Virus record (IMG/VR): IMGVR_UViG_3300007511_000008
Strand: one strand, 5' to 3'
DNA: 64,000 nt
From: a virus
Lineage: Duplodnaviria > Heunggongvirae > Uroviricota > Caudoviricetes
Shown here: positions 29,315 to 55,650 of the stretch, one piece after another
Numbering within the stretch: the first letter of the stretch is position 1
Layout of the letters: every line of letters starts with the position of its first letter
Program-made: the position numbers and the translations under genes
Notes under the pieces: generated by a model
Seen by the model: only the letters and a program-made list of their open reading frames with translations
Database searches by the model: none
What the model was told of the DNA's origin: nothing

Positions 29315-29327
29315 TGTTCTCCTCCTA

Positions 29328-35711: not shown

Positions 35712-35778
35712 GAATCGATCCTCCTATTCGCCGAGTATATCGTAAAGAGAGTAGCGTATATGTGTCAAGATACTACTC

Positions 35779-37850: not shown

Positions 37851-39506
37851 CTACCCCGTCGGTGGGTAAATATAGACCCATTCACCAGTTTTAGGGCTAC
37901 GGTACTTCCGCAAGTATTTGTGCATACGGATACCCTTGGGCTGCTTCACCTTCAAAACGTTCCGCATGCTCTCATTCAACTGGTGCTTCTTCCGGGCAAC
38001 GTTGTACACCCACTGGTCAACTGTAGCCCCGGGTTTACGGTTGAAGATGAAACCCTTGGGATACGCCGTTGTATACCGTTTGATAAGCACCTTTCGCTTC
38101 TCAGGAGGCCGATGGGATTGGCCACCCAATCGACGTACGCGGGCCTCGGCCTGGTGCACACGTTCCGGGTTCCAATGCCCATCCATTGAGAAGAACGCGG
38201 TAGCATTCTTCAGGTCGAGGCCTTCTGCCCCTGCACCAGAGATAAGGACAACCTTCTTCTTGCCGGCCTTGAAGTCTGCAATGTCTACATCCCTACTATC
38301 GCGAGTCACCTTCTTACCCCCGATAGTTCTACCAGTACCAGCAAATACCCCAAAAGGAACTCCCCGCTGTTGCAGACCAGCCGCGGCAACGTCCAACCCT
38401 CCCTTGATGAGATTACTGTAGACAACAGCCTTCCCATCCGGCGTCTCCTTCAGATGGTTTTGGAGGTCATCCAGCAGTTTTTTTGTCTTAGGGGTCAACT
38501 CAGCAGACTGTGCCTTTGTGTACTCCGGGTTGGCAGAGGAGATATCGTTCAATGCCCGGCGGGCGTGGATGATCTTCCCAAACACATGAGCAAGCTGCTG
38601 TGGAGAGAGGTTAGTCTCTCCCTTAGCAATCATCTTCTTGATTGGGCCCAGCTTATCCATGACGTAGTCGTAGTAGAGCTTTTGCTCCTTTGACATTGGA
38701 ACCCGAACAGTTTCCACCTGCTTTGCAGGCATGCTCTTTCCGACATCTTTACTTGTTCGTACGTCAACGACGGGCGTGACATAATGTGCAATCTCGCCCG
38801 GATTCACGAGAGCTTTGATATCTTTCTTACCACCCCAAAAACCCTTCTCCTTTCCAATAGTACGCATGTACCTTTGTTTGAAGAGAGACTTGGACATAAA
38901 TTGCCCCCCGGTCGCAATGTTGACCAGAGTAGCAATCTCCGCAGGACTGTTATTCACCGGACTCGCAGTTAGCCCAATGAAGTTCTTACTGTACTGCCGG
39001 GCCTGAAGTGCTGCCTTATGGGTACGTGATCGCTCAGAGCGCAGCTTATGGAACTCATCGAAAACCAGGGTATCAGCGCCACTCCGGCGGATGAGGCCAA
39101 TGGGGTCCCGACGGAACATATCGTAAGAGATGACCGTGTAATCTGCTGCCGGAGTTATCTCATCGATATAATGGATGTTGTCGTTGGGGTCCTTGTTGGC
39201 CGCAGCCTTTGACCCAACAACCTGGTGGGAAGACTGCGTAAACTTCTGGATACCTTCCTTCACGAAGTTGGTCTTCAAACCAGCCGGCACAACTACAAGG
39301 GCTTTGTTCGCACGTCCGGCAGCCTTAGCTTTTTCAAAAGCAAAGATTGCAGTAGCCGTCTTCCCAGTACCAGTGGCATGCGCAAGAATCACTTGCCCCT
39401 GGTTGAAGAACTTATTGACAGCCGCCTGCTGATGCGGGTAGGGCTTGAACCCTTCCTTTACCCCGGCTACCTTAGTTTGCCCAAGGAATTGTGCAAGCTT
39501 GTCCAT
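37851..39506 (-). CDS. SNF2-family (SF2) helicase/ATPase.
   Basis: Motif I is 'ILAHATGTGKTATAIF'. Motif Ia is 'ALVVVPAGLKTNFVKE'. Motif II is 'LVFDEFHKLRS' (DExH). Motif III is 'IGLTASPVNNSPAEI'. Motifs V/VI are 'VVLISGAGAEGLDLKNATAFFSMDGHWNPERVHQAEARVRRLGQ'. Confidence 0.7.
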   Translation of the reverse strand: MDKLAQFLGQTKVAGVKEGFKPYPHQQAAVNKFFNQGQVILAHATGTGKTATAIFAFEKAKAAGRANKALVVVPAGLKTNFVKEGIQKFTQSSHQVVGSKAAANKDPNDNIHYIDEITPAADYTVISYDMFRRDPIGLIRRSGADTLVFDEFHKLRSERSRTHKAALQARQYSKNFIGLTASPVNNSPAEIATLVNIATGGQFMSKSLFKQRYMRTIGKEKGFWGGKKDIKALVNPGEIAHYVTPVVDVRTSKDVGKSMPAKQVETVRVPMSKEQKLYYDYVMDKLGPIKKMIAKGETNLSPQQLAHVFGKIIHARRALNDISSANPEYTKAQSAELTPKTKKLLDDLQNHLKETPDGKAVVYSNLIKGGLDVAAAGLQQRGVPFGVFAGTGRTIGGKKVTRDSRDVDIADFKAGKKKVVLISGAGAEGLDLKNATAFFSMDGHWNPERVHQAEARVRRLGGQSHRPPEKRKVLIKRYTTAYPKGFIFNRKPGATVDQWVYNVARKKHQLNESMRNVLKVKQPKGIRMHKYLRKYRSPKTGEWVYIYPPTG

Positions 39507-40670
39507 TTACCTCGCCTCTACCCGCTTAATAGCAGCAATCAATCTCGCACGAGCAGGAGTATCAGGGAGAGACTTAAAGAAAGCTTTATCTCCGCCCCCC
39601 GAAGGAGTTTTCTTTATGGCAGTAACCATTTTCCTTACGAACGGCGCACCGCCCATTTCCCTAAACTTCGTTGTTACCTCAGAAGGGGAAAGCCCCCGCC
39701 GTTTCCAGCTATCACCCACTTTCCCTACAGAACGGGTAGTGGCCTCAAGAAGCCCCTTCTTGTGGGGATTCTTGGCTAAAGCCAGCGTCCGCCGCACCAC
39801 CTGCTTCAAGCCAGCAGCCTTCTCCAGCTCATCTGTAAAAGCTCCCATAATAAGTTCTTCCATAATATCCTCCTTAGATGCTTTCTTTACCTTACCTTTC
39901 TTATTAGCTGCGAGGACTTTCTGGAGAACCCCGCCAAGTACCATCGTACCGAATGCCCCGGCTGCCCCACGACCAACAGTCTTGGGCAACCACTTTACTG
40001 GCTGCTTGAATGCTTTTCCGTAGGCTTTCGGGGAGAACAGCTTTTTCTGCTTGGAGACATCAGCAATGACTGTTTCCGAGAGCCCCTTCCCGGCACCGGT
40101 CAGCCCACCAAGAGCAGCAGCTACAGGAAGGATGCTCTTTGGTTTCTTCCCCTTCTTAGCACCCTTTGTATTGGACTTCATCTTATGGGCAAGCCCCAGA
40201 GCCAAAGCAGATGCAAGAGCGGTTGCTGTAGCACCCCGGCCAAGGGCCTTTGGGCCAAAGTGTTTGCCCCAATTTGGCTTCTTCTTAGCATAAGCTTCCC
40301 AGGCACCCTCAATGCCACCCTTGCCGTAGCCGTAAATGGCTCCCGAGCCGATAACCTTTGCGATGCCCTTCTTTGTCCGCTTTTTCTCACCCGACTTGAT
40401 ATCCGCCATGCCACTTGCGAAAACAGGGAAAGTTGCAGTGCCGCCGATGAGACCGCCGAGCCCGCGACCGGTAGCGCGTCCTTTGAGCGCACGCAGCATC
40501 TTGCTGCCCTTAAATGCCCCGCGAACAGGCTTCCCGGTCAACTTCATCTTAGTTGCATCTGCAGCGACCTGGTCCACAGCTCCTTTGGGGATATCGCCGA
40601 TGATAGACTTTGTAGCACCGCCTACCAGCCCGGCATACAGGGCGTCTCGTTTTTTACTTCTCTTCGCCAT
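39507..40670 (-). CDS. Gly/Lys/Ala-rich basic protein (387 aa). Candidate internal-virion or ejection protein.
   Basis: Low-complexity, highly basic repeats throughout ('GKGGIEGAWEAYAKKKPNWGKHFGPKALGRGATATALASALALGLAHKMKSNTKGAKKGKKPK...'). Confidence 0.45.
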   Translation of the reverse strand: MAKRSKKRDALYAGLVGGATKSIIGDIPKGAVDQVAADATKMKLTGKPVRGAFKGSKMLRALKGRATGRGLGGLIGGTATFPVFASGMADIKSGEKKRTKKGIAKVIGSGAIYGYGKGGIEGAWEAYAKKKPNWGKHFGPKALGRGATATALASALALGLAHKMKSNTKGAKKGKKPKSILPVAAALGGLTGAGKGLSETVIADVSKQKKLFSPKAYGKAFKQPVKWLPKTVGRGAAGAFGTMVLGGVLQKVLAANKKGKVKKASKEDIMEELIMGAFTDELEKAAGLKQVVRRTLALAKNPHKKGLLEATTRSVGKVGDSWKRRGLSPSEVTTKFREMGGAPFVRKMVTAIKKTPSGGGDKAFFKSLPDTPARARLIAAIKRVEAR

Positions 40671-41514
40671 CGGTCAGCCTCTTGGGGGCGTTGGGTCCAG
40701 ACATTTGAATAATCTTGCCCCCACGCGCCTGCAACTCCTCCGCTGAAGGGGGAGTATCTTCACTAAAGCGTAACATAATCATCTCGAGCATTTGAAGTGC
40801 TGTGTCTGTAGAAGACTTGGCCCGTTCCTGCAAATCAAGTCCGCGAAGAGCGATATCCGCCCACGTCTTCGCAGACCCCGTAGTCTTTACGTTGGTTGGA
40901 TCTGCAGACGCCACCGCCCTGAAATTAGAGAAGGCCTGGTCAGTCATGTACTTCAGCATATCCTCGGGCTTCAACTGCAGAGGTTCCCCCACAGCCAAAA
41001 GCGCGGCATGTGGATCGGAAGCTACATAGACAGACCAAAGGCTGCTCCCATGCTGGTACTTATCAAGGAGGGCCTTCCAATCATCCAGATCCAGCAGATC
41101 TTTATTCCAAAAGTAATGGGCGTAATATCCGATTACTTCCTCGTCAATTTCCTTTCCGAAATACTTAGAGATGACATCTCGAATGACATCAACTGGGACT
41201 TCCCCGAGCAACATGGCTTCCAGCTTCTGCCTAAGATTCCCGGTACCCAATAGGGTAGATGCCGCGACAACCTTTGGTCGCCGGACTACAAGGTCGTATA
41301 GCTTATTGTCTCGTAGCCAGCGAATACAGTGGAGTGCGTTGGGGTCGAACGGCTTTGGCTTGGTTTTCTGAAGTTCCTGCCGCAGTACTTCCAGGTAGAC
41401 CTCGTCAGGAGTAGGGAATCTACGGAGGGCTACCGCACTTTGGATATCCTCATTGGAAAACTGCGGCTCCATCGACAACAGAGCCTTTATCCAGTATTCG
41501 CATGGTAGCCGCAT
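40654..41514 (-). CDS. Hypothetical protein (286 aa).
   Basis: Clean ORF overlapping its neighbour by 17 nt. Confidence 0.45.
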   Translation of the reverse strand: MRLPCEYWIKALLSMEPQFSNEDIQSAVALRRFPTPDEVYLEVLRQELQKTKPKPFDPNALHCIRWLRDNKLYDLVVRRPKVVAASTLLGTGNLRQKLEAMLLGEVPVDVIRDVISKYFGKEIDEEVIGYYAHYFWNKDLLDLDDWKALLDKYQHGSSLWSVYVASDPHAALLAVGEPLQLKPEDMLKYMTDQAFSNFRAVASADPTNVKTTGSAKTWADIALRGLDLQERAKSSTDTALQMLEMIMLRFSEDTPPSAEELQARGGKIIQMSGPNAPKRLTDGEEK

Positions 41515-41517
41515 CCA

Positions 41518-43512
41518 CTATCCTGCCTGTACCTGTTCGCGGCCCTTCAACTTCAAGAGCTCCAGCCCCGCGGTAATTGCCTCAAGGGCGTTGATCGCAC
41601 GAACAGCTGCATCTTCGGGAACATCCGAAACACCCAGCTGAGATGCAAGCAGAAGCTCACAGACTTTCGAACTGGCCTCTTCCAGGAACGGGAGGTAATC
41701 GATGAAGATTGCCATGTTCTCAGGAGTGATGAAATTGAGCCCAAGTACAGCATCTACCGTATTCTCCTCCTGGAGAGCGGTCGCCACCTTGAGCAGGGAA
41801 TAGTCTTCTTCTGGGAAGTGGGGCATCGCCTCAACTGCTGCGACCTTGGCCAACTCCTGCTGTGCTTCGTAGGTCTCAATAATCCGCGGTGCACGAACAG
41901 TAGTTCTTCCAAAGACCTGCGCTTCCGCCAGCTTGGTTTTACCAAGTACCGGGGGCACACCAGCGAGACCCAGGAAGAAAGTAGCCTGCGGTTCTCCAAC
42001 AAAGGAGGTTTTACCACCGAGCGCCTGCACCGGAGCACCGGAGAGGGTATACTCTCCATCGGAATGTGATATTTCCACCTCAGACCCGCGCAAATTAGCG
42101 CTCGCCAGCTTTACTGCCACAGCTTCATTGGTGGCAACTTTGACCTTCTTCCCAAGAGGAAGGAAGCTCACGAAAGTTTCAGGGTGGGCTGCGTAAAGGC
42201 CGGCAGCGAGTTTTACGAAACCATCGGCAGGATCGACGCCTGTAGTAACTCGGATCTTACCGGAAGTCATTCCGGAATCGTAATGGGCATATTTCCCATC
42301 GGACTCTTCGTAGAAACGGATGTTGACCGGCGGGGAGGCAATGGCACCCGCAGACCCTTCCTTCACAAAGCAACCGCGGCCACGGGGAAGCTCAGTCCAC
42401 ACCATCTCAGTCAACTTCGCAGGCAGGTTATCCGTAGGAGTCCCATAAGCCTCTTGCACGTAGGAATGCCCGGAGGCAGTCTTGATAAAAAGGCCATCCT
42501 GCGGTTTCCCATCCAAGTCTCGTACGTGGGTAAACACGAGAGCAGGCTGAGAGTGTGTGCTGGAAGTCTGCACCATGTACGCCCCGGAGGTCTTAATCTT
42601 CTGCGGCGGGTTTACTTCCTCTGGCGCAACATTGAGATTCCGGATACGAACTGCGTACCCCTTAGCATCAGCTTCCTTTCGAAGGGCTTCAGGCAACGCA
42701 GCCTGCAACTCACCGGTCAGCTCGTCCACCTGGTCGAAGTAAGCTCTTGTACAAGCAGAGGCAAACTTGTAGCCATCCGGAGTTCTTTCTACCAGCACAG
42801 CATCCGTCGGAAGATTATTCCGGACAGTGGCTTTGATAGCAGAAGCTTCCTTGGACTTCGTGGAAAGGAAGTGCTCAACCTTCTCCCGGAAGTGCGGATT
42901 CTCCTTGAGACCGTGCAACAGAGTGGGGTCTGAGGAGATAAATTCGGCAATCTTCTCCTTCCGCGAAGGGGAGATCGTTTGCCCAACAAGACCGCACAAG
43001 GAAGCCGTCTTTACTACACCCTCCCCCGGGGTATCAGGGAACATCCCACTACCGGACAAAGTCCCAGTACCAACACCCGCCTGAGTCTGTGAGATGTCAA
43101 AGGCCGATGGGGAATAGAGGACAGCATCTACACGCCGCTGAGTAAGCGGGTAGGCCAAACCGTTTGCCGGATTGATGAAGGTGAGCAGGGGCTTGAGCTT
43201 CCGCTTTTCCACAATAAACGGGACGCGGATCCCAGGACCTGTTGAGGGCAGAGGAGTATTCGGCCCAGTATCCGAAGGACGCAAATCCGGTGCAGACTGC
43301 GGAGTGACAGCAAAGAAGCCATAAGCATATCCGCGCTTCTCATCCTGATCGAGCGTACGTTGGTCAATTCGGTACTGGCCCAGATACCCGGCCTGCTCAA
43401 GCAGAGCACTAATCAACTCCTTAGACCAAAGACTCGGATCATCGCTCAGCTTGGTACGCGGTGCCGCGGTCTTCTCCATGTCCGGTGGAGTAGTCAGAAA
43501 CAAAGACTCCAT
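41518..43512 (-). CDS. Large hypothetical virion-module protein (664 aa).
   Basis: 2-kb ORF in the structural block. No catalytic motifs recognised. Confidence 0.5.
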   Translation of the reverse strand: MESLFLTTPPDMEKTAAPRTKLSDDPSLWSKELISALLEQAGYLGQYRIDQRTLDQDEKRGYAYGFFAVTPQSAPDLRPSDTGPNTPLPSTGPGIRVPFIVEKRKLKPLLTFINPANGLAYPLTQRRVDAVLYSPSAFDISQTQAGVGTGTLSGSGMFPDTPGEGVVKTASLCGLVGQTISPSRKEKIAEFISSDPTLLHGLKENPHFREKVEHFLSTKSKEASAIKATVRNNLPTDAVLVERTPDGYKFASACTRAYFDQVDELTGELQAALPEALRKEADAKGYAVRIRNLNVAPEEVNPPQKIKTSGAYMVQTSSTHSQPALVFTHVRDLDGKPQDGLFIKTASGHSYVQEAYGTPTDNLPAKLTEMVWTELPRGRGCFVKEGSAGAIASPPVNIRFYEESDGKYAHYDSGMTSGKIRVTTGVDPADGFVKLAAGLYAAHPETFVSFLPLGKKVKVATNEAVAVKLASANLRGSEVEISHSDGEYTLSGAPVQALGGKTSFVGEPQATFFLGLAGVPPVLGKTKLAEAQVFGRTTVRAPRIIETYEAQQELAKVAAVEAMPHFPEEDYSLLKVATALQEENTVDAVLGLNFITPENMAIFIDYLPFLEEASSKVCELLLASQLGVSDVPEDAAVRAINALEAITAGLELLKLKGREQVQAG

Positions 43513-43533
43513 TATATCGCCTCCTAAGTTAGC

Positions 43534-44769
43534 TTACCCACTCAACTTCACAATACTCGAAAGCGCTATTCCTGATTCGAGTGATGCAATCCAATCCGCC
43601 GTTGGCACCCCGGTTATTGGGGGCGCGCCAGGTGGTACCGGTGCGGGGGGCATATGTACATGTGCGGCCAACATACCCATCAACACCTTCCCAAGGACCG
43701 CGCTCTCAAGCGCCACATTACTGCCCAAGTTTATAGTCCCCGAGTCTATCGTGCAACTCCCTGTCCCAGAGGACAGAGATATACCGGACAGGGCCTCTAC
43801 AACAAGTTCTTGCACTGTAGCCTTCAAAGAACCGTCAGATTCTCCTGTCAGTTTCCCGGCAGAACCAAACTCCACCACGAACCCGTTCTCGGCGTAGACG
43901 TGACCCGTATCCATCTCCCAATGCATATCCCCGGTAACCTTTGTAAAGACGTTACCAAGAGTATCTACCTGGAAAGTGTAGGTACACCCAGTGTTCTCAG
44001 GATCAACGCAAATGGAGATAAGTGTTGTCTCCTGCGTATTCCCCGGATAGGACCCGGAACCAAACTTGTATGCCTTGTCTCGAGTAGAGCCGAATAACTC
44101 ATCTTGGCTCGGCGAGAACTGGTCATCCCCGGCACGGCCGGCACGTACTTTGATAGTTACATGCTGGTCCTCAACATCTTTTTTCATACCCCAGTAGAGC
44201 TGGGCAGCAGTTTTATCATCACCGGTTTGGATAGTTCCATGCTTCCAAAAAAGAGTGCCAAGCAAGGATTTGGCCTCATAGTTCTGGAAGAAGTGCCGGA
44301 TGAAGTTATCGATAGGGATGTAAAGAGTCTGCGCAAGGGGAGAACTTCCGATCTGCAGGGTACCACCTTTACGCAGTAGGACTGTAGCGCCCCGCGAGTT
44401 GTAGAGGGCGATGTCCCCAGGAGCCAGGCCCATCCTCCCACCAAGGAAATCATCGTCCGGTTCTGCTGCGTCATCCTCTGAGAAGGCTCCATGGAGGGGG
44501 GCACTCAACCACCCCATTACAACAGGGTCGGATCCATCGGACATGAGGTAGACGAAACACTTAGACCCTACCTCCGGGACAAAGTCGATATGGGTCCCAG
44601 TTACCACATTGGTGTACAGGGTGCCGTACGGAACGTTGCTGTAGATATCAGACTCCCCGGAAAGGTCGACCTCGACATCTACTGTGCGGGTACCTGGGTA
44701 TACCTGCACGATGGTACCGAGTACTACTGCTGCTGATGTTGTTCCACTCTGCTGAGGACCGCTTACCAT
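43534..44769 (-). CDS. Hypothetical virion protein (411 aa) with a beta-rich N-terminal half and a Gly/Ser-rich C-terminal half. Tail/baseplate-like.
   Basis: Composition and position only. 'GSGSYPGNTQETTLISICVDPENTG...' and a C-terminal 'PPAPVPPGAPPITGVP' stretch are present. Confidence 0.45.
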   Translation of the reverse strand: MVSGPQQSGTTSAAVVLGTIVQVYPGTRTVDVEVDLSGESDIYSNVPYGTLYTNVVTGTHIDFVPEVGSKCFVYLMSDGSDPVVMGWLSAPLHGAFSEDDAAEPDDDFLGGRMGLAPGDIALYNSRGATVLLRKGGTLQIGSSPLAQTLYIPIDNFIRHFFQNYEAKSLLGTLFWKHGTIQTGDDKTAAQLYWGMKKDVEDQHVTIKVRAGRAGDDQFSPSQDELFGSTRDKAYKFGSGSYPGNTQETTLISICVDPENTGCTYTFQVDTLGNVFTKVTGDMHWEMDTGHVYAENGFVVEFGSAGKLTGESDGSLKATVQELVVEALSGISLSSGTGSCTIDSGTINLGSNVALESAVLGKVLMGMLAAHVHMPPAPVPPGAPPITGVPTADWIASLESGIALSSIVKLSG

Positions 44770-44790: not shown

Positions 44791-47700
44791 TTAGTATGTT
44801 CCCTTCTCTCCCTTCCCAAATTCTGCTCCGTAAACTATCCCGGGAATCGGATGTTCCCCATGGAGATGTGATATCCCCTGCTGGGATCCGGCCTGCTTCA
44901 GCACATCCCGCAAATGCTTATAATTGAGCTGCGTCAGCCAATCATCATGCAAATGGAAGGGCAAGATGTTTGTGCCTCGCAAAACAGGGGTATACTTGAC
45001 AGTGTCCTTTTTCCCATTTTCAGAGTTCCAGGATTGGATCGCTCGGACAGGCACAATATCTCCGGGAAGATAATCTGGGTGATCCCCCGACTCCCGAACT
45101 TCCGCGACATCTGTTAGCGCCCGGACAATTACCTCGAGGTGCCTGTGGCGAATCTTCTCCGGGTCGTACAGCTTTCCGAGCTCATCTACCAGGTAGTTTT
45201 GTACTGTTGATACATTCGTAAGCCCAAGAAGTTCGCGGGGGTTGATGGGCCCACTGCTGAGTGCCCCACCCTTGGGAATGCGGGTTCCCTTAGTAACCTT
45301 AAGCTTACGGCTCGCAGGTACATGGTGCTGCTCAGAGCCTACCTTAACATCCCAACCCCCAACGGGGCTCTTGGAGATGGAATTGACTACCCCGGCATTC
45401 TTGCTGAGGATAGCGGAACCCTTCAGCTTTTGGGGCATTTGTAGCACCTGCTTCAACCGCTCTATTCCATCCACAAGACCAGCGCCACCAGTGGCTGCGC
45501 CGCCGGTGTGAAAAACGCGCATCGCAAGCTGCGTGGCCGGCTCTCCGATGGATTGTGATGCGATGACCCCTACGTTCTCTCCTATGGGTGCGGGGTTGCC
45601 GGAAGGGTCGAGCCCGTAGCATTTCTGGCATAGGCCCTTCTTAGCCTGGCACTTCAAGGGGCTGCGAACGAGAATCTTAGAGACCTTTGCCTGCCGTAAC
45701 TTAGCTACTGTGTCGGGGGTAATCGTCGAGCCTGCCCGGAGAGTCTCGCCCCGCACCTTGACGTTGTTCGCCAAAGTACGATCCAACACAGAAAGATCTG
45801 TTACAGGGACATGCATGCCTTTAGAGGTCTTGCAGTCATTCTCAGTAAGCGTAATACCCATGGTGGTCTTGACTACCTGCTTGGTAATTGCCCCCGGGTC
45901 CTGAACCTCCTGCGTCTTGGAAATGATACCCCGGCGAATACCTCCAGAAGACAGCCAGTAATCATGAAGGGAGAGCCCGGAGCCGTAGCTCCCAGTAATT
46001 GCGGCTGGGATCGGCTTCCCTGCTGCATCGCTTACCATCATACGCGCCAAGACGATCTGTTTGATCTGCTCCCAGTTTGGCTTCACCCCTGCCCGAGACA
46101 TTATCCAAAGAGGATTATCGTCTTTCTCAAGAGAGGCAAGGGCTTCCTTCTGCATCTTCGCAGAGGCCTTTGTGTACAGGTCTACGATCTTCGCATCCCG
46201 TTCAGCCCGCGGCAATTTCGCCTGCTTCTTTATGGCGGCAACCTTAGGCTCTACTTCCTTCAAAGTCTTATCGCGAATCTTATCGAGCACCTTAAAGGCA
46301 TCAAGATTGAAGGAGAACCCAATTTTGTGGGCATGGCCGAAGCCGAGGTCCTTCAGCGTCTGCGCAAACTGCGGGTACTCTTGCGGAGTCTTCTGTGCCA
46401 CATCTTTCAAGATAGCCCGCAGAGACTGCTTGTGGAACGCCCACTCTTTCCCAGTACCCAGGTGCTTGTGTAATTTCGCGGGTATCTTCTTTTTAAGTAG
46501 CTCACGACCCGCAGTAGTTGCTGTACCCCCTACCTTCACCCCCACGTCCCAACGAACTTCCCGGTTCTCTGCTGCTTTCAACAGAGCATCAGCGGAGGCG
46601 TACTTTTTGGAAGTGGTACCTTTCATACGGCTAAGGAGATATAGCCCAACCAGGCCTTCCTTATCTGGGACAAACATTGGCTGCCCAGTAGCTGCGCTCA
46701 GGAGATTCCGGCTCGGCAACATATCATAGGCTTCCTTTACAGCTGCCTGGGATACGGGAACAAACAAAGACACCTGGTCCCCGTCAAAATCAGCATTGTA
46801 CCCACTACATACAAGCGGGTGGATGTGTATCTCTTTATCGCCTTTAATACGAACATTGAATGCCATAATCCCATACTTATGGAGGACGGGATCACGTTTC
46901 ATCAATACCGGCCGTTCCTTCAGCACGGCATCAAGGGCAATCCTCGCTTCAGGTCTTCTATTGAGAATAATGTCTTTGGCCTGAAGAGGCCGCATACCGC
47001 CCCGCACCAAATGTTGCATTACAAAAGGACGGAAAAGTTCCATAGCGGTAGCTTCCGGCATCCCTACTTCATCGAGCTGCAGTTCCTGGTCCGGGACAAT
47101 AACCCCGCGGGCAGACATATCCTGCTTCCGCTTTACCAACTGCTCCATGAAGTAGCCAGTCTTCGGAGATTTCCCTGCGATAATATCGAGGATCCCCTTT
47201 GGGATATCCAACCGCTCACGGTCCGGACCAACCAGTCCTGCTAGAGCCGTAATACCGCCATAAACCTCCGCGCGGAGTTTAGCCAACTCTTCATCAGGAG
47301 TTTCGGGAGGCATCTCCGCCAGGCGCGAGTTACTCAAGCTCAACTCTTTGTATAGCTGGTTCAGATCTCCCCGATTGAGGTTGCCATCATCCAGCACAGT
47401 AATCGGACGTAGGTTGGGCGGGAGCACAAGAACATTGCCCTGCATGTACACATCAGCGGAATTATCCGCACGCTTCAGAGCACGCAGATACTTCACTTTC
47501 CGGTTGAGCTGGTTACGGTTCGAGTCTTTAGCTCCCTCAAGACTCTTCTCAGCCTTCCGCAATTCAGTGGGGATATCCAACTCCTTAAGGGCTCGGCCAA
47601 GCGTAGCTCGAGGCCCAATACGAGTAGCCTCCTCTGCGGGGACCACATTACCATCCTTATCCATCCCCAATTCACCGGAGACAAGCTTACTGAAGGTGTC

Positions 47701-50700
47701 GTGTTTCAGTCCCAGAAGCGCCATAATCGGCCGCTCAAACAATGGGTTGGGGAAAGCTTCCGCAAGCGCAAAATGGGAGAAGTGCTTTCCTCCTACACCA
47801 CCGGTAATCTTCTCATCGAAGAGACCACCAGCCTCAGGGCGTAGGTCTTTTGCACGTAGGATTTTTCCGGGGTCTTTCAACTCTCCATTGGAGAGCTGTT
47901 TTACCTGCTTATCCGTAAAGGGAAGAACGGTGAGGACATCACCTTCACGCTCAACATCCAATCCAAGAACCTTGAGGTAGGCCAAGAACTTTTCGAACGC
48001 AAAAGGTACCTGCGGGCGAGGAAGGGGGTGGCCAAGTTGCACAGCTGTCCAAATATCATCCTGAGATTGGTCAGATTTGATAGTCTGCATCTCACGGATG
48101 TTATTCACTGCCCCATGCGCCAGCATCGCAAAAAGCCCCAACTCACCTACACGTTGTGCCCCATGCTTACCACCACCCTTGGGCTCCATATTAATGGTAT
48201 ATTCGTACCCTGGCCCCCAAGAACGAGCGGCTGCTTTCTTCTCTGCCTGATGGTTCAACTTGATGATATACTGGTGGCCAACAAGCTGCTTCCCGAGCGC
48301 TTTCCCATTATCATCGAAAAGCTCAGCTTCCTCTGAAAGACCGCGAGCATCCAACATATCATCAACAATGGAACGATAATCCCTCTCATACTCATAGGGC
48401 TCAATCCAAACTTTCTTCGTGCCCTTAGCGGAAGTCTTCACTGTACGCCAGTGACCCTTAACCTTAATAATGCGCGTAGACCGGTCCGCCTGGAAGTTCC
48501 GTACTGCAAGAGGAGATCCCTCGTGGATAGCGACATGCGAAAGGGAAGTTTCAAGCACCTGCCCGGCATTCATACGGCCGGGGACACCTAAGGGGTTCAT
48601 AACAATATCGACGGCGTTGCCTTCTTTATCCCGGGGCATCTCATCATCAGGCAACACAAGGGCAACGACACCTTTGTTCCCATGGCGACCCGCCAACTTG
48701 TCCCCAGGCTGTGCCGGGAAATCTGCTCGTACGTGGACCTCGATGTACTTCCCACGACGAACAACGTCCACCACCTCACCGCGTACACCCTTGTCCCACA
48801 CAACCGAGCGGTCTGTATACTCCCGAACAAGACTTCGGTGAATGCCCTTCATCAGAGCTTTCTCAGGTGTCATCGGGGCCTTCTTAGCTGCAGCTACAAC
48901 AGTATCTCCAGGCTCAACCACTTCCCCGACCTTGATAACACCGTCGTCATCGAGCTTTCCGCGATTCTCTGTACTCATCGCTTCTGGGAAAAGGGTAGTG
49001 AACTTCTTCTTATTGAGTACGTAATCGCGGTCCATAAAAATGGAAGGCTTGTGCATGTGAACAGAAGTCAACTTCTTAGAAGCCGACTCAGAAATCAACA
49101 AGCCATCTTCAAAAACAAGGCCCTTGTACGGCAGGTAACCCACCCGCAAGTTAGTACCAAGAGCCAGTGTACCGTCCTTAGTGAAGTTAGTATCGGCGAT
49201 TATCTCACCAGTCTTGACCGTGTCCCCAACAGCTACGGCCGGTTCAGAGCTCAGGTAGGCTTGCAGCTCATTCAGGGGGAAATTGTCATAGAGCTGTACT
49301 GTGTGCCGTTTTCCATCTTTCCCTGTAACCGTAATCCCGTCTTTCGTGATACGAGTTACCTTGCCGCTTACAGGAGAGGAGTGTGCGGCAAACGCCGCCC
49401 ATGCTCTCTCATGGGTCCTCCCCGGCTCATCAAGAGATCGGCTGTGCGTTTGGATAAGCGGAGGCTCACGGTTCTTCAGGGGAAGCGCCTGCTCCATATG
49501 CCGGACTGCCATCTCCACTCGAGTACCATCATCGTTCTGTAGGAAAGGAACCAGATTGGTCATAGGGGAGAACATCGTAGTTGCCGAGGGCAATACGTAG
49601 TCTACCTTTGCCGGGTCCACTACAGCCTTCAAATCTTCAGGGGTCTGCGCAGAGACCTTCTTAGTTACTGGAACCCAACCACCTTTCTCTTTGCGGTATT
49701 GGTCCGGAAAAGATACCACTGCCTGCGCAAGCTGAAGCGGGGTAACCAGCTCGAGTTTCTTTGTTTTCGTGTTGTACGCGGGGATAGTTACCGCCCCATC
49801 CTTTCTACGGGCATCAGTAGTTAGCTTGAGAGAAATGCCTGCGCGATCCCCTTCAGGGGTATGTACTGGATCAAGGACACCGAGCTGTGTGGGATCTGCT
49901 GCCTTGGCATCAGCGGTAACACCGAAGGCAGAGCCGATGGCCCCAACATCTGCGCCAAGCAACGTAGTTCCCAGGTACCGTGACAACATAGATACCGGGT
50001 TCGTTTGGGGAGTTTGGTTGGCAACAGAGGATTCCCGGAAGAATGAAAGGAGTGGGCCGGAGAAAATATCTGATGCGAATATTTCTCTAACCTTGTCCTT
50101 CCGATCCAGGTTATTCTTCATTTTCCGGGCTACTCTATTTCGCGCGCGGTCCAACCGATCCGGCAACAAGTCCTCTATCCCTAAGAGGTCCTTGAAGGGC
50201 AGCGCATCCCGATTATCTGGTTCTCGCTTACCCTGGTGTATCTCCAGAAGATTGGTAGAAGCCTTTAGAAGAGGTTCTGCGTTTACTGTGGCATACGGCT
50301 TCCCCAAAGTAAGTGCTGTAGAGTCGGGACGAAGTTCTGTATCCGCAAAGCGGCTTCTTACCGCGTCTATCACCCCGGCCTCTGTTGCGGGCACCGGGTC
50401 CTTTAAAGAAGTAAGGAGTTTGCGTAAAGCAGCCTGCTTATCGCGGGGAGAAGTCTTTGCGGCGTTGAAGAGGTCTTTCCCCCAGGCCTTCTCCATAGCG
50501 CCGTCGGAAACCCCAAGGGCAGAGAGTACCGGGTAAAGGGGTACCTTAGCCGATGCATACTTAAAGGAAAAGTTCTTCTTGTTGGGATCCAGGATCAGGC
50601 GAAAACCACGTTGGTTAAATCCCTTCTTCAAGTTGAACATAATCTCGGGTTCTCCCGTAGCAGCAATACGAGAGTAAACGCCCGACTTCAGTCTCCAGAC

Positions 50701-51075
50701 GTGATCGGTCTGGTACTCCTTGCCATCAATGATAAAGCTGTAACGGCGGGTAAGAGTGGGGAGGCCCACTATCTTTGCCTTTGGTACCCGATCGATAGTT
50801 TTCCCAGTAGCCTTATCTACAAGAGAAAAATCCCCGTGCACGCCAACAGACCAGGTACGCCCGTTACGCCTTGCCGTTTCCTGGCTTTTGATGTCGTCAA
50901 CCGACTTGGGGTCGGAGACCAATACACTGTTTAGCTTCAAGACGTGTTTCTTGCCTACAAGCGGGAAGAAGCTCTTTATCTTGTCGGCTACTTTCTGCTG
51001 AAGGTTATCAGTAAGAGTCTGCGGATTAAGGACAAGCATTTTTTTCGCACCCCATGACGGCACTTTCCGCTCCAT
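44791..51075 (-). CDS. Single-polypeptide multisubunit-type RNA polymerase: an N-terminal beta-like (RpoB) moiety fused to a C-terminal beta'-like (RpoC) moiety, 2094 aa. Probable virion-packaged RNAP given its position.
   Basis: Beta motifs: '[47 protein letters not shown]' matches E. coli beta '[43 protein letters not shown]'. '[37 protein letters not shown]' matches '[32 protein letters not shown]'. Beta' motifs: the catalytic '[15 protein letters not shown]' matches [14 protein letters not shown]. '[44 protein letters not shown]' matches the beta' 'CxxCYGxDL...[28 protein letters not shown]' region. Confidence 0.85.
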   Translation of the reverse strand: [2094 protein letters not shown]

Positions 51076-51465
51076 GATATTGGATGGGGGGTAGTAGCGT
51101 CAACCTCTTTACTCTAACTGGTATAAGGGAAATGTAAGGAGCGGATACCCCGCATACTCTAACACGGAGGAAGGAGCATGAGATGGTAGACAGCCACGAC
51201 GGAGGGACAACCTCCCTCGACCACTTCGCCGACGGATTGGCCGTTGACGAAGACGAAGACCTTGGAGATTGGGTTGACGAAGAGGACGACGAGTAACACC
51301 CAATGGCGCTGGGGCTATTCCTCGCCGGCCATTTCCTGATTGGTGTCGGTGTAGAACTAATCTATGAGGCGAAAGATCTCCTCGTAGAAAAAGCCCTATG
51401 AAGGACCGAAAGCAAATACAACTGAAGGGTGTCCCTTCGTAAAAGGTACTTCGTGCGAAAATGTT

Positions 51466-51495
51466 GGGGCCCGGCGCATAGCGCGTTTGGGCCCC
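51466..51495. terminator. GC-rich structured hairpin immediately 3' of the portal-candidate stop (minus strand), inside a 425-nt intergenic region upstream of the RNAP gene. Putative terminator or RNA structure.
   Basis: GGGGCCC (51466-72) pairs with GGGCCCC (51489-95). An inner palindromic GCGC-ata-GCGC stem adds pairing. T-rich on the + side (TATTTTACTTCTT), but only a weak TTTT on the minus-strand side. Confidence 0.3.
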
Positions 51496-51499
51496 TATT

Positions 51500-53431
51500 T
51501 TACTTCTTACTTGTTAGGGGAGGGGGACCACCGCTGAATTGGTCAACCTGCATTCTATTTACTTCATCGAGAATTGCAGGGTAAAGGCTTGGAACCTGCT
51601 TCTGCAGCTTAATAAGCGCTTTCGGGCGTTGGAAGGAATCCAGAGCAAATAGGCTACGGGCAGCCTGCCTTGCCAGGAGTTCAGTCTCCGGGCCGGTAGG
51701 GGGCTGAACCTGCGGAGCTTCCGGAGCTGCTGGAGGCATAGCCATATCTTCTGGACGCGCACCTAATGCCTGCATTTGCTCAGGAGGCAGGCTACCGGGC
51801 TGCTGGGGAGCGCCCTGCGGTGCCTGTCCCGGAGGGGCCTGGCCGGGGGGCACCTGCCCTGGAGGAGGCGGAGGCATCGATTCCTGCATAGCCTTCTGCT
51901 GCTCTCCCTGATATTTAGCTGAGATAATTCCAGCCTCTCCGTTGATCTCCGCGCCGTCGGTAGCGGTCTTCTCGTTGATCTTCCGCATGATATCCAGATC
52001 GTTGAAAATCTTCTGCTGTTCCGTATTGAAGTCGAGGTCCCTGGATTCCAGCAGAGTCTCGGGGCTGATGAGCTTACGGTCGTAAAGCTGGAGGTCATAT
52101 GCGGCTTTCTGCAATTCGTCTGCCATGCGGAAGGGCTTCTGCCGCACCTCACACAGAGGAATGCCGAAAGCATTAGCAATGTCCCTAACGATGAACTTGA
52201 TCATATGGTGGACATCCTCCCTCATACGGAGGAAAGAGTTCTCCATTGTCCGCATCGAAACGCTTGACCCACTCCAGCGCAACCCGCCAAAGACAAACTC
52301 AGAGGGGACGCCGAGACCCGCGAGAATCTGCTCCTGCAGAACCTTAATCTCGTTATGGAGCAGAAGCATTTTACCTTGCCCACCAACAACCTGGTGCCCC
52401 ACCGGATACGGCATTACGGGCATGTAGTTAGGGTCCTTCCTCCAGGTAGTAATCTCAGACTTTACGTGGTCCTGCCAGTCGAGCAGGTTATACGTGGTAT
52501 AGGGATCCGCTTTCGGGTCGGAGGTCTGCGGGAAGAAGATACGCATCGGTACAATGTGCTCGAGGGCAATCGCTTCCTGCGCTTTCAGCAGAATCCTGTA
52601 GTAGAACGCGGTCTTCATTACCGGGGTAATCAGGGGGAGACCCCAGCCGGCATCATGCCTTGAAATGGATGTTCTACGCAGATGGAATATTGTTCCCGGG
52701 CGGAAAACCAGCTTCTTGCCCTTGGCAACAGCGTTGATGAACGCTTGCGGAATAGTCTGCAGGGTATCCTTCCGACCAACCAGAATAGCGTTCGAGATGG
52801 CAGGGGGGATCGTGTACACGTAGATTGTACGCCCAGTTGCGGGGTTATGCTCAATCTCCATGTAGTTCGGGTTGATCCTGAGGACTCGCAGGTCCTTCAA
52901 AGATTTGATGTACTGGTCCTGAACCTTGGCGTACCCACTGTAAGTACACTTGGGGCAGGTATACATGAACTGGTAAGAACTCCAGGTGTAGTCTGTAGAC
53001 TCTACCGGAACAGAGTGCCCACATTCCCGGCACACCAACATCTTCCGTAGTGGGTGGTGGACGTATACAAAAGAGTTCCCGTAGGTATGGTAGTCCATCA
53101 GGACCTCTACGAGGAATGCACGAATCTGGAATACTTCCTCAAAGATGTACTTGTAGGTGTCGTTTACCCACTCGTTCTCACTCAGATACGCAAGATCCGT
53201 AATGGGGTACGCCGAGAGCTTGGCTATCGCTGCATGGATAAGTGGGTCCATGACCGCGAAATACTCGCACCATTTGAATTGCGATTTTACGGTACGCGGG
53301 AGGTACAGGTTGGAGACATCCGCAAACACATTGGCGTACGGAGCGTAATCAGTGCTTCCTGCACGAGATCCGTAACCACTGAATCTCCCGCTTGAGCCCG
53401 ACGCTACATCGTATGGGTTGCTCCCAAACAT
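51500..53431 (-). CDS. Portal protein candidate (643 aa) with an internal zinc-ribbon insertion and a Pro/Gln/Ala-rich C-terminal tail.
   Basis: The size and position in the structural block support the call. 'CRECGH...CPKC' is a Cys4 insertion. The C-terminal tail is low-complexity ('PPPPPGQVPPGQAPPGQAPQGAPQQPGSLPPEQ'). The assignment is by context and architecture, not a specific motif. Confidence 0.45.
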   Translation of the reverse strand: MFGSNPYDVASGSSGRFSGYGSRAGSTDYAPYANVFADVSNLYLPRTVKSQFKWCEYFAVMDPLIHAAIAKLSAYPITDLAYLSENEWVNDTYKYIFEEVFQIRAFLVEVLMDYHTYGNSFVYVHHPLRKMLVCRECGHSVPVESTDYTWSSYQFMYTCPKCTYSGYAKVQDQYIKSLKDLRVLRINPNYMEIEHNPATGRTIYVYTIPPAISNAILVGRKDTLQTIPQAFINAVAKGKKLVFRPGTIFHLRRTSISRHDAGWGLPLITPVMKTAFYYRILLKAQEAIALEHIVPMRIFFPQTSDPKADPYTTYNLLDWQDHVKSEITTWRKDPNYMPVMPYPVGHQVVGGQGKMLLLHNEIKVLQEQILAGLGVPSEFVFGGLRWSGSSVSMRTMENSFLRMREDVHHMIKFIVRDIANAFGIPLCEVRQKPFRMADELQKAAYDLQLYDRKLISPETLLESRDLDFNTEQQKIFNDLDIMRKINEKTATDGAEINGEAGIISAKYQGEQQKAMQESMPPPPPGQVPPGQAPPGQAPQGAPQQPGSLPPEQMQALGARPEDMAMPPAAPEAPQVQPPTGPETELLARQAARSLFALDSFQRPKALIKLQKQVPSLYPAILDEVNRMQVDQFSGGPPPLTSKK

Positions 53432-53439
53432 CTACACTC

Positions 53440-53973
53440 CTATGTCTTCTTCGAGATCAAACGTCCCAGGGCAGCTCCCGCTGCTTCCCCGCCGGACCAT
53501 GTCGCCAGGGAGGGAAGGAATTTCATTCGTGCGCTCGCCAACCAGCCCAGGGAACCACCCAACATACGTCCGACGTGTTGGCCTTTCTGGCCCTTCTTCG
53601 CACGCGCAGCAGCACGAGCCGCTTCTAAAGCCTGTCCTACAAAGAAAATCCGTCCAAGGCTCGGAGCCGCAGCAGAAGGAACACCCTTCTTGTAAGCAAG
53701 CCGGGGAAACCACTTCCCCTTGCGAGTCGCAATCCCCTTGATTTCTTTCGAGGGACCCAAGGCTGTCCAACTCTTCTTTGCAGCCTCTCCGGGATTCTTG
53801 GCATATGCCCGCACTACCTGGGGTATGGTGTGCTGCTTGAGATTTCCGGGGAGTACCCTTTTACCATGATGCTTCGGCTTTCTGGAGTAGAATCCTTCGA
53901 ATTGCCCTCGAAAGGGGTTCCACCCAGCGTGCTTAGCGAGCAGCGATCTTGTTCGCGAGAGCGAGATGCTCAT
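53440..53973 (-). CDS. Basic hypothetical protein (177 aa from the internal MSISLS start).
   Basis: ATG at 53973 has AAGAGG 7-8 nt upstream. The longer 54048 start overlaps the upstream gene by 116 nt. Confidence 0.4.
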   Translation of the reverse strand: MSISLSRTRSLLAKHAGWNPFRGQFEGFYSRKPKHHGKRVLPGNLKQHTIPQVVRAYAKNPGEAAKKSWTALGPSKEIKGIATRKGKWFPRLAYKKGVPSAAAPSLGRIFFVGQALEAARAAARAKKGQKGQHVGRMLGGSLGWLASARMKFLPSLATWSGGEAAGAALGRLISKKT

Positions 53974-54565
53974 CTTGCAGCCTCTTATATTCAAGCAGGT
54001 AATTCTGCAAATCCCGGTGCCGAAGTACCTGCGCAGCGAGGACAGCATCCTTTGGCAAGGACCGGTCTGTCCCGTTCAAAATCTTTTCCATCTTATCATA
54101 TAAGTCCCGAGATACCACCTTCCGTATGCGTCTACCCAGGAAACGCAATTGCTTTGGTGGATTAGTGAAACCTTCTGCCAACAATATTCCACCGAGATAT
54201 TTTTCAACATCGGAGGAGTAAGGGTGCGCCCGCAGCTGCTGCATAACGTGCACCCCATGAGTAGCCGCAGCTACAGAAGGTTTTTGTAAAACACCGAATT
54301 GTGGTGCTACAAAACTAAAAGGAAGTACTACCTTCTCGAATACATACCAATCATCATAAGGTGCCTTGCTGGTATGTACTGTCCTACATGCATTGATCTT
54401 CGATTTATTGAGTAAGCTTGGTTCCTGAGAAAAGCGGGAGCGCAGTTCCTGCCAAATAGTTTCAGGCTCCCACCCAAGATACTCAGGCCCAAATTCCCGA
54501 AGACAGAGGACATGTAGGGCGATTGGGTGTGTTAGCGGAGACGTAAGGAAAGTAGCCGAGTTCAT
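53933..54565 (-). CDS. Hypothetical protein (210 aa).
   Basis: Clean ORF. Confidence 0.45.
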   Translation of the reverse strand: MNSATFLTSPLTHPIALHVLCLREFGPEYLGWEPETIWQELRSRFSQEPSLLNKSKINACRTVHTSKAPYDDWYVFEKVVLPFSFVAPQFGVLQKPSVAAATHGVHVMQQLRAHPYSSDVEKYLGGILLAEGFTNPPKQLRFLGRRIRKVVSRDLYDKMEKILNGTDRSLPKDAVLAAQVLRHRDLQNYLLEYKRLQDEHLALANKIAAR

Positions 54566-54568
54566 GCA

Positions 54569-55507
54569 TTAACACTTCTTCGCTATTTTTGCGAGCGAGA
54601 CCTGGGTGTCTTTGGGAAGGCTGTTGAATACCGCAACAGGAGCTTCCTTGAACTGGTTTACAAACGAAGCCGGGAACTGCTCTGCGAAAGCATCAGAACC
54701 CGCCAACTTTTCGATATCGAGATCGGTAACTACGAGGGACCCGAGATGGAACACCTTACTGGCAACCTTAGCTATCTCAGCCAGCTTTTCCACACCCTGA
54801 GCACCGAACACGGTAGTTACCGGATCGGGGATACCGCTCCCCCAATGCTGGAACATGCCGCTCTCCTGGTCCAGGTGATTGACAAAGGCAAGAAGGGCCG
54901 GTGGGGACATCGCGATCTTCTCAAGCTGCTCAAAAGCCCACTCGCGTGTATGCGTATCCATATAAGGACCGCGCATCTGCATACCGCGGGCGAAGGAGTC
55001 GGGGTCTACCGGGGTGGTAGCCGCTACCTTCTCCAGAGGAGCATCGAAGTCTGCTTCTACCTCTTCTTCGTACCCACTGTATGCTTCTTCTTCCCGCTGC
55101 TGCTGAATCGCATGGGCAACCTTCTCGAAGCCCTCGGGGGCGGCTGCCCTTACATCTTCCCCCGCCGCCAGCTGGTGGAGTTCTTCGGGAGCCCGCAGAC
55201 CGTATGTCTCGCAAGCATCCTCCAGGCGACGAGCAGCCAGTTTGCGCAGAGGCTCGGGAAGATTGTGGCCGGTACGAGTGAAGTACATCGTACTCAACCA
55301 GACATTTCCGCGGTCCACCATGGCGAACTTACGCATGGAATGCATCCCATCAGCGTAGGTCAGTGCCCAGTGATCTGAAGGAAGTTCTTCCGTAGGAGCC
55401 TGAGCTTCTTTTACAAAAGGTGGCAAGACTTCGGGGTTGGGGAACAGTTCCCGTACAAGTGCGCCACCATCATCAGTTAGATCGTAACAAGCAAAACGCC
55501 AATCCAT
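54569..55507 (-). CDS. Hypothetical acidic protein (312 aa), the first gene of the minus-strand block.
   Basis: Clean ORF 3 nt upstream of the next gene. Acidic, no motifs. Confidence 0.45.
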   Translation of the reverse strand: MDWRFACYDLTDDGGALVRELFPNPEVLPPFVKEAQAPTEELPSDHWALTYADGMHSMRKFAMVDRGNVWLSTMYFTRTGHNLPEPLRKLAARRLEDACETYGLRAPEELHQLAAGEDVRAAAPEGFEKVAHAIQQQREEEAYSGYEEEVEADFDAPLEKVAATTPVDPDSFARGMQMRGPYMDTHTREWAFEQLEKIAMSPPALLAFVNHLDQESGMFQHWGSGIPDPVTTVFGAQGVEKLAEIAKVASKVFHLGSLVVTDLDIEKLAGSDAFAEQFPASFVNQFKEAPVAVFNSLPKDTQVSLAKIAKKC

Positions 55508-55650
55508 AGGTTTCCTCCCAGCAGATACCGTAACAATACTATTTGTGTGCCCGTTCCTCTGTCAAGCAGGATGTTGCCCCGGAAAGCATTGAAGGAAGCT
55601 GTTATAAGACGTGTGCGAAAACTACCCCTAACAAAAGAGGAGGCCAAGCG
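55508..55650. promoter_or_regulatory. Divergent intergenic region between the minus-strand block and the plus-strand replication block. Putative bidirectional promoter region.
   Basis: 143 nt of non-coding sequence separates the diverging gene starts. A TTATAA hexamer lies at ~55604. No confident -35/-10 pair could be assigned. Confidence 0.25.

Follow-up and report, generated by a model that had tools for sequence, protein, structure and literature searches.

The locus described here raises the question of whether a tailed phage can encode, among the genes for its head, a bacterial-type RNA polymerase (RNAP) as one polypeptide, and whether such an enzyme is made to travel with the DNA. The stretch analysed (the window) comprises 64,000 nucleotides of the virus record IMGVR_UViG_3300007511_000008 in IMG/VR (Duplodnaviria; Heunggongvirae; Uroviricota; Caudoviricetes), and forms part of the ENA contig SUTE22-1_SAMN10231914_METAG-scaffold_85, an independently assembled sequence of 182,679 bp; no near-identical DNA was found in the phage collection searched. 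The gene in question is one uninterrupted open reading frame (ORF) at 44791..51075 on the minus strand, 2094 residues long from its ATG and by far the longest of the region, with neither an internal stop nor a frameshift in the ORF list and translation. Its product is almost certainly a bacterial-type RNAP, in which a β-like and a β′-like module are carried by a single chain.

The initial annotation, made from the letters alone, had proposed a single-chain β-β′ enzyme of the multisubunit type on the strength of canonical catalytic motifs, and every one of the motifs it quoted was found in the translation of the ORF. LAGRHGNKG lies at residues 794-802, the NPLGVP-type motif of β starts at residue 827, the C-terminal signature of β (...AHGA...E...KSD) is present, and the β′ signature region opening with CQKCYG occupies residues 1816-1859. 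Pfam returned Rpb2_6 (4e-51), Rpb1_2 (9e-29), Rpb1_5 (3e-25) and, marginally, Rpb2_3 above the curated cut-offs, with Rpb2_7, Rpb1_1 and Rpb1_4 below them, all matches following the order β then β′ along the protein. A family hidden Markov model (HMM), built from 77 intein-free members, aligned with Salmonella RpoB (E=9.6e-143) over RpoB residues 52-231, 425-932 and 1014-1340, and with Salmonella RpoC (E=5.5e-190) over RpoC residues 145-948 and 1130-1347. The motif similarities thus held in a profile alignment, the check that had been proposed for them, and the retained and deleted domains could be mapped. In the PHROG collection the two halves of the protein fall into phrog_24349 and phrog_25354, both listed as phage families of unknown function. 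A phmmer search of the PDB gave bacterial β′ chains as the best matches, down to E=8.8e-117, and an AlphaFold2 model of residues 600-1720, covering both barrels and the junction (mean predicted local distance difference test score, pLDDT, 87.7; predicted template modelling score, pTM, 0.81; junction confident), retrieved bacterial β′ chains at the top of a Foldseek search (E~1e-42). Since both searches led to bacterial β′, the enzyme stands much nearer to bacterial RNAP than to the enzymes of phages phiKZ and AR9.

Residue-level alignment and the HMM placed the β-like module at residues 13-1044 (47944..51039, minus strand), with a reduced β2 lobe and without the sequence insertions (SI) βSI1 and βSI2. 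The β′-like module, delimited by HMM, alignment and phmmer, occupies residues 1045-2094 (44794..47943, minus strand) and lacks both the cysteines of the N-terminal Zn-finger and SI3. The β part ends in ...LGLDVERE at residue 1044, and residue 1045 onward aligns to E. coli β′ from about residue 15, and the two subunits are therefore joined directly, with no linker; separate β and β′ polypeptides are not the case here, as one ORF runs across the junction between residues 1044 and 1045. The claim of compactness was likewise borne out, the chain being some 650 residues shorter than E. coli β and β′ together (1342+1407=2749). The stretches left unmatched by the HMM account for about 655 absent residues, and we take them to be βSI1 with part of the β2 lobe, βSI2, β′SI3, the first ~145 residues of β′ and short termini. 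Among these, the first 145 residues of RpoC are unmatched by the family profile, and the N-terminal Zn-binding domain of β′ (C70, C72, C85, C88) is deleted, with about 30 residues gone and the cysteine segment replaced.

What has been retained is the catalytic apparatus. The double-psi β-barrel motif GRHGNKG of β, with its two active-site lysines, lies at residues 796-802 (48670..48690, minus strand) and aligns with E. coli β 1060-1080, and the catalytic Mg2+ loop of β′, NADFDGDQ, at residues 1427-1434 (46774..46797, minus strand) aligns with E. coli β′ 458-464. The N-terminal arm of the trigger loop (residues 1844-1859; 45499..45546, minus strand) keeps its histidine, with no SI3 behind it, and the residue-level alignment also recovered the lid, clamp helices and rudder (residues 1218-1306), the bridge helix (residues 1699-1744) and the second Zn site, whose cysteines C1748, C1809, C1816 and C1819 correspond to E. 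coli C814, C888, C895 and C898. Across the 77 intein-free members the two lysines of GRHGNKG are invariant (1.0), and the other five positions are conserved in 79-99%; the three aspartates of NADFDGDQ, the trigger-loop histidine and the cysteines of the second Zn site are invariant as well, with neighbouring motif positions again at 79-99%. The chain is thus predicted to be a catalytically competent RNAP core in one polypeptide, in which a complete, insert-free β is fused straight to β′. Alternatively, the protein might descend from an RNAP but be catalytically dead, having been exapted for a structural role or for ejection, a possibility for which its location in the head module and the high abundance of a homologue in phage particles, described below, might speak. 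However, the invariance of the catalytic lysines, aspartates and Zn-site cysteines, together with the retention of the bridge helix and trigger loop, argues against such a loss of function, and we regard it as very improbable.

The start of the gene probably lies a little inside the maximal ORF. The nearest relatives (P0002, P0003, P0004, P0005 and P0008) all share the N-terminus MLILNPQTL..., whose first residue matches M13 of the ORF in the window, and the 75 nt that precede this ATG at 51039 form a conserved non-coding block; for both reasons ATG 51039 is the probable start. The true product would then be of 2082 residues (44791..51039, minus strand), the maximal ORF being 12 residues too long. 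Public gene callers chose GTG 51063, which gives 2090 residues.

The same protein architecture recurs widely in metagenomic phages. A word-indexed protein search yielded at least 225 clusters at 90% identity, and the best 120 of these consist, with hardly an exception, of full-length single chains: 77 have ~2030-2150 residues, and 42 have 2250-3260 residues and contain intein or LAGLIDADG domains. In an exhaustive search, a 361-residue query spanning the junction (residues 940-1300) gave 700 representatives of 50% identity clusters at E≤1e-30; among the best 150 of the 700, the match crossed the junction in all 150, mostly as a single stretch. Members of the family sit on phage contigs of ~100-210 kb. 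Many homologues carry one to four in-frame inserts of 300-500 residues with intein or LAGLIDADG domains, at no fewer than seven sites in the family (window residues ~441, 579, 691, 868, 1005, 1517 and 1925), and some insert-bearing proteins reach 4739 residues. At least one insert is a clear intein within the conserved KSD motif, with Cys as its first residue and its end at ...VGN before S. As inteins lie inside conserved motifs of many members, the host protein appears to be under strong selection. The single chain is therefore not the oddity that the initial annotation took it for: it is unusual when set against published phage RNAPs, but it is the norm in a very large and almost unstudied phage family, of which cultivable members exist.

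How this enzyme relates to the phage RNAPs already described can be set out in some detail. Like phiKZ and AR9, the window phage encodes an enzyme of the multisubunit type, and in phiKZ-like phages too the RNAP genes are accompanied by a Swi2/Snf2 helicase. In phiKZ and AR9, one of the RNAP sets travels in the phage head and, once injected, carries out early transcription, which rifampicin does not inhibit. Their enzymes consist, however, of four to five very divergent polypeptides, exist as two paralogous sets and employ gp68/gp226 in place of a σ homologue, whereas the window enzyme is one chain, lies nearer to bacterial β/β′ and appears to be single-copy in its cultured relatives. Natural and engineered β-β′ fusions of the same head-to-tail topology are known from the rpoBC of Helicobacter and Wolbachia and from tethered E. 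coli RNAP, a fusion that is possible because the C-terminus of β adjoins the N-terminus of β′. These are full-size cellular enzymes which still assemble with α2 and ω; in contrast, the window enzyme is some 650 residues smaller, has no β′ Zn-finger and is phage-encoded within a head module. Giant single-chain RNAPs that are packaged and injected are represented by the N4 virion RNAP, which has a T7-like, single-subunit fold, and by gp66 of crAss-like phages, and for the window enzyme packaging is suggested by homology. Divergent single-chain phage RNAPs are known from crAss-like phages, YonO and P23-45. The crAss enzyme has two barrels with no recognisable β/β′ sequence motifs; the window enzyme, unlike gp66, matches RpoB and RpoC profiles end to end. 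The contrast that had been drawn with the split phiKZ/AR9 and the motif-poor crAss enzymes thus agrees with the literature.

Another published counterpart is the mReC group (multisubunit-RNAP-encoding Caudovirales; Weinheimer & Aylward 2020), a set of tailed phages, uncultured and reaching ~300 kb, whose RNAPs carry canonical β/β′ motifs (NADFDG) and branch apart from the cellular enzymes (PMC7481178). In the entries of the mReC table that were examined, β (~920-1560 residues) and β′ (~900-1370 residues) are the products of separate genes, sometimes with two sets per contig, and no single-chain protein was seen among those entries, in contrast to the single gene of the window (PMC7481178). The five IMG/VR samples from which relatives of the window come are all absent from the mReC tables (PMC7481178). 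Two reviews of jumbo-phage RNAPs and one comparative-genomics survey cover only the fragmented phiKZ/AR9 type, without σ, and no description of a single-chain, bacterial-type ββ′ in phages was found in the literature. Multisubunit-type RNAPs of phages have accordingly been known in three forms: fragmented (phiKZ/AR9), divergent single chains, and separate β and β′ (mReC). That phages encode RNAPs of this type is known; what is new is a minimal, complete and clearly bacterial-like ββ′ in one polypeptide.

The gene lies on the strand of the structural genes, directly downstream of the portal gene and inside the head and packaging module, as had been noted. The portal protein (643 residues; 51500..53431, minus strand) is 31% identical to the portal proteins gp204 of Salmonella phage Arash and 0259 of Vibrio phage D69 (E~1e-82), has a weak PHROG portal match, is syntenic in the related loci L005, L006, L014 and L015, and is separated from the RNAP gene by 425 bp. 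Upstream of it lie three genes of 312, 210 and 177 residues (53440..55507, minus strand) with no Pfam match, the first two conserved across the family and the third matched in L005 alone. Directly downstream of the RNAP gene are four genes of 411, 664, 286 and 387 residues (39507..44769, minus strand), the first three of which accompany the RNAP gene, in the same position, in those four loci. The genes on this far side of the RNAP gene had been described as tail or internal-protein genes, a description that was not borne out, the neighbours there being conserved proteins with no Pfam or PHROG match and no assigned function. Next come a helicase of the SNF2/DEAD family (551 residues; 37851..39506, minus strand; PHROG 62 at 9e-62; Pfam SNF2-rel_dom, ResIII and Helicase_C), which sits between the RNAP block and the terminase and is 26% identical to its Arash homologue gp217, and the large terminase subunit (35779..37434, minus strand; PHROG 675 at 1.6e-55; Pfam GpA_ATPase). 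PHROG matches identified a protease-like protein (31872..33353, minus strand) and the major capsid protein (28169..29395, minus strand) further along the same strand. The block 312-210-portal-RNAP-411-664-286 is kept in L005, L006, L015 and L014, whose RNAPs are 77%, 45%, 43% and 39% identical to that of the window, and as it is conserved down to 39% RNAP identity, the RNAP gene is a fixed component of the head block rather than a stray insertion.

This arrangement also bears on the possibility that a bacterial rpoB-rpoC region is being seen, whether as a natural fusion of the Helicobacter or Wolbachia kind, as an assembly chimera or as a recent capture from a host. The best matches among solved structures are, as mentioned above, bacterial β′ chains. 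The identity to bacterial subunits is, however, only about 24-30%, the β′ Zn-finger and the lineage-specific inserts are absent, the gene stands between portal and terminase on the independently assembled 182,679-bp phage contig, and hundreds of homologues occur in the same phage context. Synteny and divergence effectively refute a bacterial origin of this kind.

The intergenic regions of the module point to shared regulation. The conserved non-coding block ahead of the RNAP gene (51058..51131, minus strand) reads CTTATACC-N16-TTGACG-N18-TATCAT-GGAGCGGAAAGTGCC and resembles a σ70-like promoter with its leader. Between 51131 and 51072 it agrees with L005 at 50 of 60 positions, as against ~45% in the rest of the gap; the block is partly conserved in L006-L009 and L014, is recognisable in relatives of 45% identity, and its CTTATACC box is also found in L014. 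Three elements of the form TTGAC(A/G)-N18-TA..AT, all on the minus strand and all conserved in L005, were recognised in the window: the one within this block, upstream of RNAP (51074..51103); a second, TTGACA-N18-TAGTAT, upstream of the portal operon (55536..55565); and a third, TTGACA-N18-TACGAT, upstream of the gene for a 258-residue protein that follows the terminase gene (35739..35768). Each lies in the intergenic gap directly upstream of an operon of the structural module, with flanks that diverge in L005. The element was not seen in the intergenic regions of the plus-strand replication genes, and a scan of the window for the σ70-like consensus gave a count not above chance, the support for the three sites coming from their conservation and position. 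While the initial annotation had expected phage-specific promoters, what was found were conserved elements of the σ70-like kind. They suggest that the RNAP gene and the head genes are regulated together, as would fit a protein made late and packaged, and that the enzyme which reads these promoters uses a factor of the σ70 family. The complete composite of the RNAP upstream block occurs once in the window, where its sub-motifs show no enrichment relative to shuffled sequences, and the idea that it is a phage promoter present in repeated copies was therefore rejected. At two of the three σ70-like elements, a CTTATA(A/C)C box is found further upstream.

Cultured phages with a full-length homologue were few. 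In the phage collection, tblastn recovered only the Vibrio phages D69, D148 and D181 and Salmonella phage Arash (30% identity, 95% coverage), and no Pseudomonas phages of the phiKZ group appeared in the organism tally of its matches. Arash (OQ632216) and the three Vibrio phages encode the same protein family in the same order of portal, small gene and RNAP, the SNF2 helicase gene and genes for structural proteins being close by. In these isolates, however, the RNAP gene is interrupted at about residue 1490-1520, giving a piece of ~1525 residues with β and the N-terminal part of β′ and a piece of ~606 residues with the C-terminal part of β′, whereas the window phage, as is usual in the family, encodes a single chain. 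In Arash the portal gene gp204 and the small gene are followed by gp206 (1525 residues), 4.7 kb of other genes, gp216 (606 residues), the helicase gene gp217 and structural genes; the layout of D69 is similar, and in the Vibrio phages the RNAP pieces are parted by small ORFs or a homing endonuclease. The split point of the Arash and D69 genes coincides with the insert hotspot near residue 1517.

The particles of Arash have been analysed by liquid chromatography-mass spectrometry, in which Gp206 was the most detected protein with 3516 spectra, the major capsid protein gave 1333, and Gp216, with 1210, ranked fifth (PMC10585845). The helicase Gp217 gave 1148 spectra, the portal Gp204 877 and the σ factor Gp10 467, and the authors, who term the RNAP pieces ordinary β and β′ subunits with no mention of a fusion, propose a role in early transcription (PMC10585845). 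Given the abundance of its RNAP in the particles of this relative, packaging and injection are plausible for the window phage, and its enzyme is probably an injected transcription enzyme. Packaging and injection, which the initial annotation had proposed from gene position, thus gained indirect support from the high virion counts of the homologous Gp206 and Gp216, a support tempered by the primase and ribonucleotide reductases that the same preparation held.

These last proteins lend some weight to a different account, in which the enzyme is a non-virion RNAP, made in the infected cell to transcribe middle or late genes, whether or not a phage σ takes part; its place among the head genes would then be historical, and its detection in Arash a matter of carry-over. 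Many non-structural enzymes were present in the Arash preparation (PMC10585845), the mReC phages carry β and β′ genes without evidence from virions, and one RNAP locus per genome was detected in Arash and in D69, so that the enzyme may have to serve later phases of infection too. In contrast, the RNAP pieces together exceeded the major capsid protein in the spectral counts of Arash (PMC10585845), the position next to the portal gene is conserved down to the most distant of the syntenic loci, and the RNAP gene and the head operons have a promoter type in common. We consider a purely intracellular role possible, though rather unlikely.

The surfaces through which bacterial RNAP binds σ were located in the alignment and model. 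The clamp helices of bacterial β′ are the chief docking site for σ region 2 and the flap-tip helix of β is that for σ region 4. The β′ clamp helices, a coiled coil at residues ~1237-1279 (47239..47367, minus strand), align with E. coli β′ 262-309 and were modelled as two helices of high pLDDT at AlphaFold2 model positions 638-654 and 662-680. A segment resembling the flap-tip helix at residues 736-745 (48841..48870, minus strand) was matched by eye to TPEEKLLRAIF of E. coli; it was left unaligned by hmmalign, is predicted to be helical at model positions 138-146 and shows weak conservation among family members. Proteins of the σ70 family are encoded by Arash and D69, among them a shared σ about 10 kb upstream of RNAP that is 42% identical between them. 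A profile of this σ found 476 database matches, the family being common on contigs of 150-200 kb. Because the clamp helices and the flap-tip-like helix are kept, and because relatives encode σ factors, one of them detected in particles, a partner of the σ70 family is probable for the window enzyme. As to rifampicin, the segment equivalent to cluster I of β (residues 347-374; 49954..50037, minus strand) carries the substitutions Q513N, F514Q, D516P, H526R, R529G and S531T in the alignment. The canonical pocket (Q513, D516, H526, S531) is thus not retained; family-wide, H526 is mostly replaced by G and the change of S531 to T is nearly invariant. Judged from these substitutions, insensitivity to rifampicin is a plausible expectation.

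Taken together, these features would fit a scheme that we hold to be moderately probable as a whole. The RNAP would be made late, along with the head proteins, enter the capsid and reach the infected cell together with the DNA, whereupon the injected enzyme would drive early transcription independently of the host RNAP and in a rifampicin-insensitive manner, with promoter recognition probably provided by a σ70-family factor.

Several points weigh against this scheme. The Zn-finger of bacterial β′ contributes to the interactions with σ and promoter, and it is deleted from the window enzyme. Searches by tblastn and phmmer with Arash gp196, Arash gp10 and D69 0246 found no σ in the window, in its ORFs of at least 50 residues or in the related loci. 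No Sigma70 domain was found by Pfam among 20 proteins of the window, nor was a σ gene found at the position ~10 kb upstream of RNAP where Arash and D69 carry theirs, and a further 7 kb of the 182,679-bp contig beyond the window hold replication genes only, again with no σ70-family gene. On two σ-bearing contigs of 177-200 kb no RNAP lay within ±10 kb of σ, the link between σ and an RNAP of the fused type being seen in the isolates only. The promoter-like elements resemble ordinary host σ70 promoters, and the host RNAP could therefore transcribe these genes. Packaging in the window phage is made plausible by homology to Arash, whose particles yielded as many as 116 proteins, among them primase, helicases and ribonucleotide reductases, and the Arash authors themselves raise the carry-over of abundant proteins (PMC10585845).

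An extended form of the injection scheme may also be considered, although we regard it as distinctly doubtful. Here the phage would deliver a self-sufficient transcription kit, in which the single-chain ββ′ core would need neither α2 nor ω for its assembly and would share the capsid with the SNF2 helicase and with a factor resembling σ. Thanks to the fusion, a polymerase threaded unfolded through the tail could refold without a search for its partner subunits, and, as the sole RNAP of the phage, it would serve every temporal class by the switching of factors. Were this so, it would be the smallest natural core of a bacterial-type RNAP. Should the enzyme be packaged and active on its own, it would represent a third independent case of the strategy of injecting one's own polymerase, a natural test of which parts of β and β′ are dispensable (Zn-finger, SI inserts, α/ω contacts), and, for structural and synthetic biologists, a bacterial-type RNAP that is compact and encoded by one gene. 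Two cultivable model systems exist, Arash on Salmonella and the D69-like phages on Vibrio, and the inteins of the family, together with the split of the isolates' genes at the insert hotspot, offer a natural series for the origin of RNAP subunit boundaries.

Some further features of the window were recorded. The SNF2 helicase in the head module parallels the RNAP-linked Swi2/Snf2 helicase of phiKZ-like phages and suggests a RapA-like partner. Directly after the portal stop codon lies a GC-rich hairpin, GGGGCCC...GGGCCCC (51466..51495, minus strand), read from the sequence as a possible terminator; it was not listed by the consensus scan and is poorly conserved in L005. On the plus strand of the gap between portal and RNAP genes are two ORFs (51183-51296 and 51303-51401), both called by public gene callers, one for a strongly acidic peptide of 37 residues in a moderately conserved stretch and one for a hydrophobic peptide of 32 residues. 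The 411-residue protein next to RNAP (43534-44769, minus strand), for which 10 homologues were found, has a β-rich N-terminal sequence, GTVVAVHP..R.V.V....PEVG..C.V..PSDG..P.V.GW, that recalls the oligonucleotide/oligosaccharide-binding fold of gpV/gp5/VgrG spikes. This likeness is unconfirmed, with no Pfam match, VgrG as best PDB profile at E=0.58 and an unusable AlphaFold2 model (pLDDT 38).

Elsewhere in the window, Rfam and tRNA scans gave no match. A 1400-residue protein with a sheath domain by PHROG is encoded at 18571..22773 on the minus strand; its match to the tail-sheath family is confined to the last ~200 residues, the other ~1200 being unmatched. The flanking plus strand carries replication genes, with a helicase, DnaB and primase inside the window, and past window position 64000 (L011 11001-18543) PolA, a RecA-like protein, a Cas4/PD-(D/E)XK nuclease and a weak RusA match were seen. 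Adjacent plus-strand genes at 35-1192, 4065-5003 and 4996-5661 encode SPFH/Band-7, weakly JAB-like and ThiF/E1-like proteins, respectively, a set that may serve ubiquitin-like conjugation and deconjugation, perhaps as a counter-defence module.

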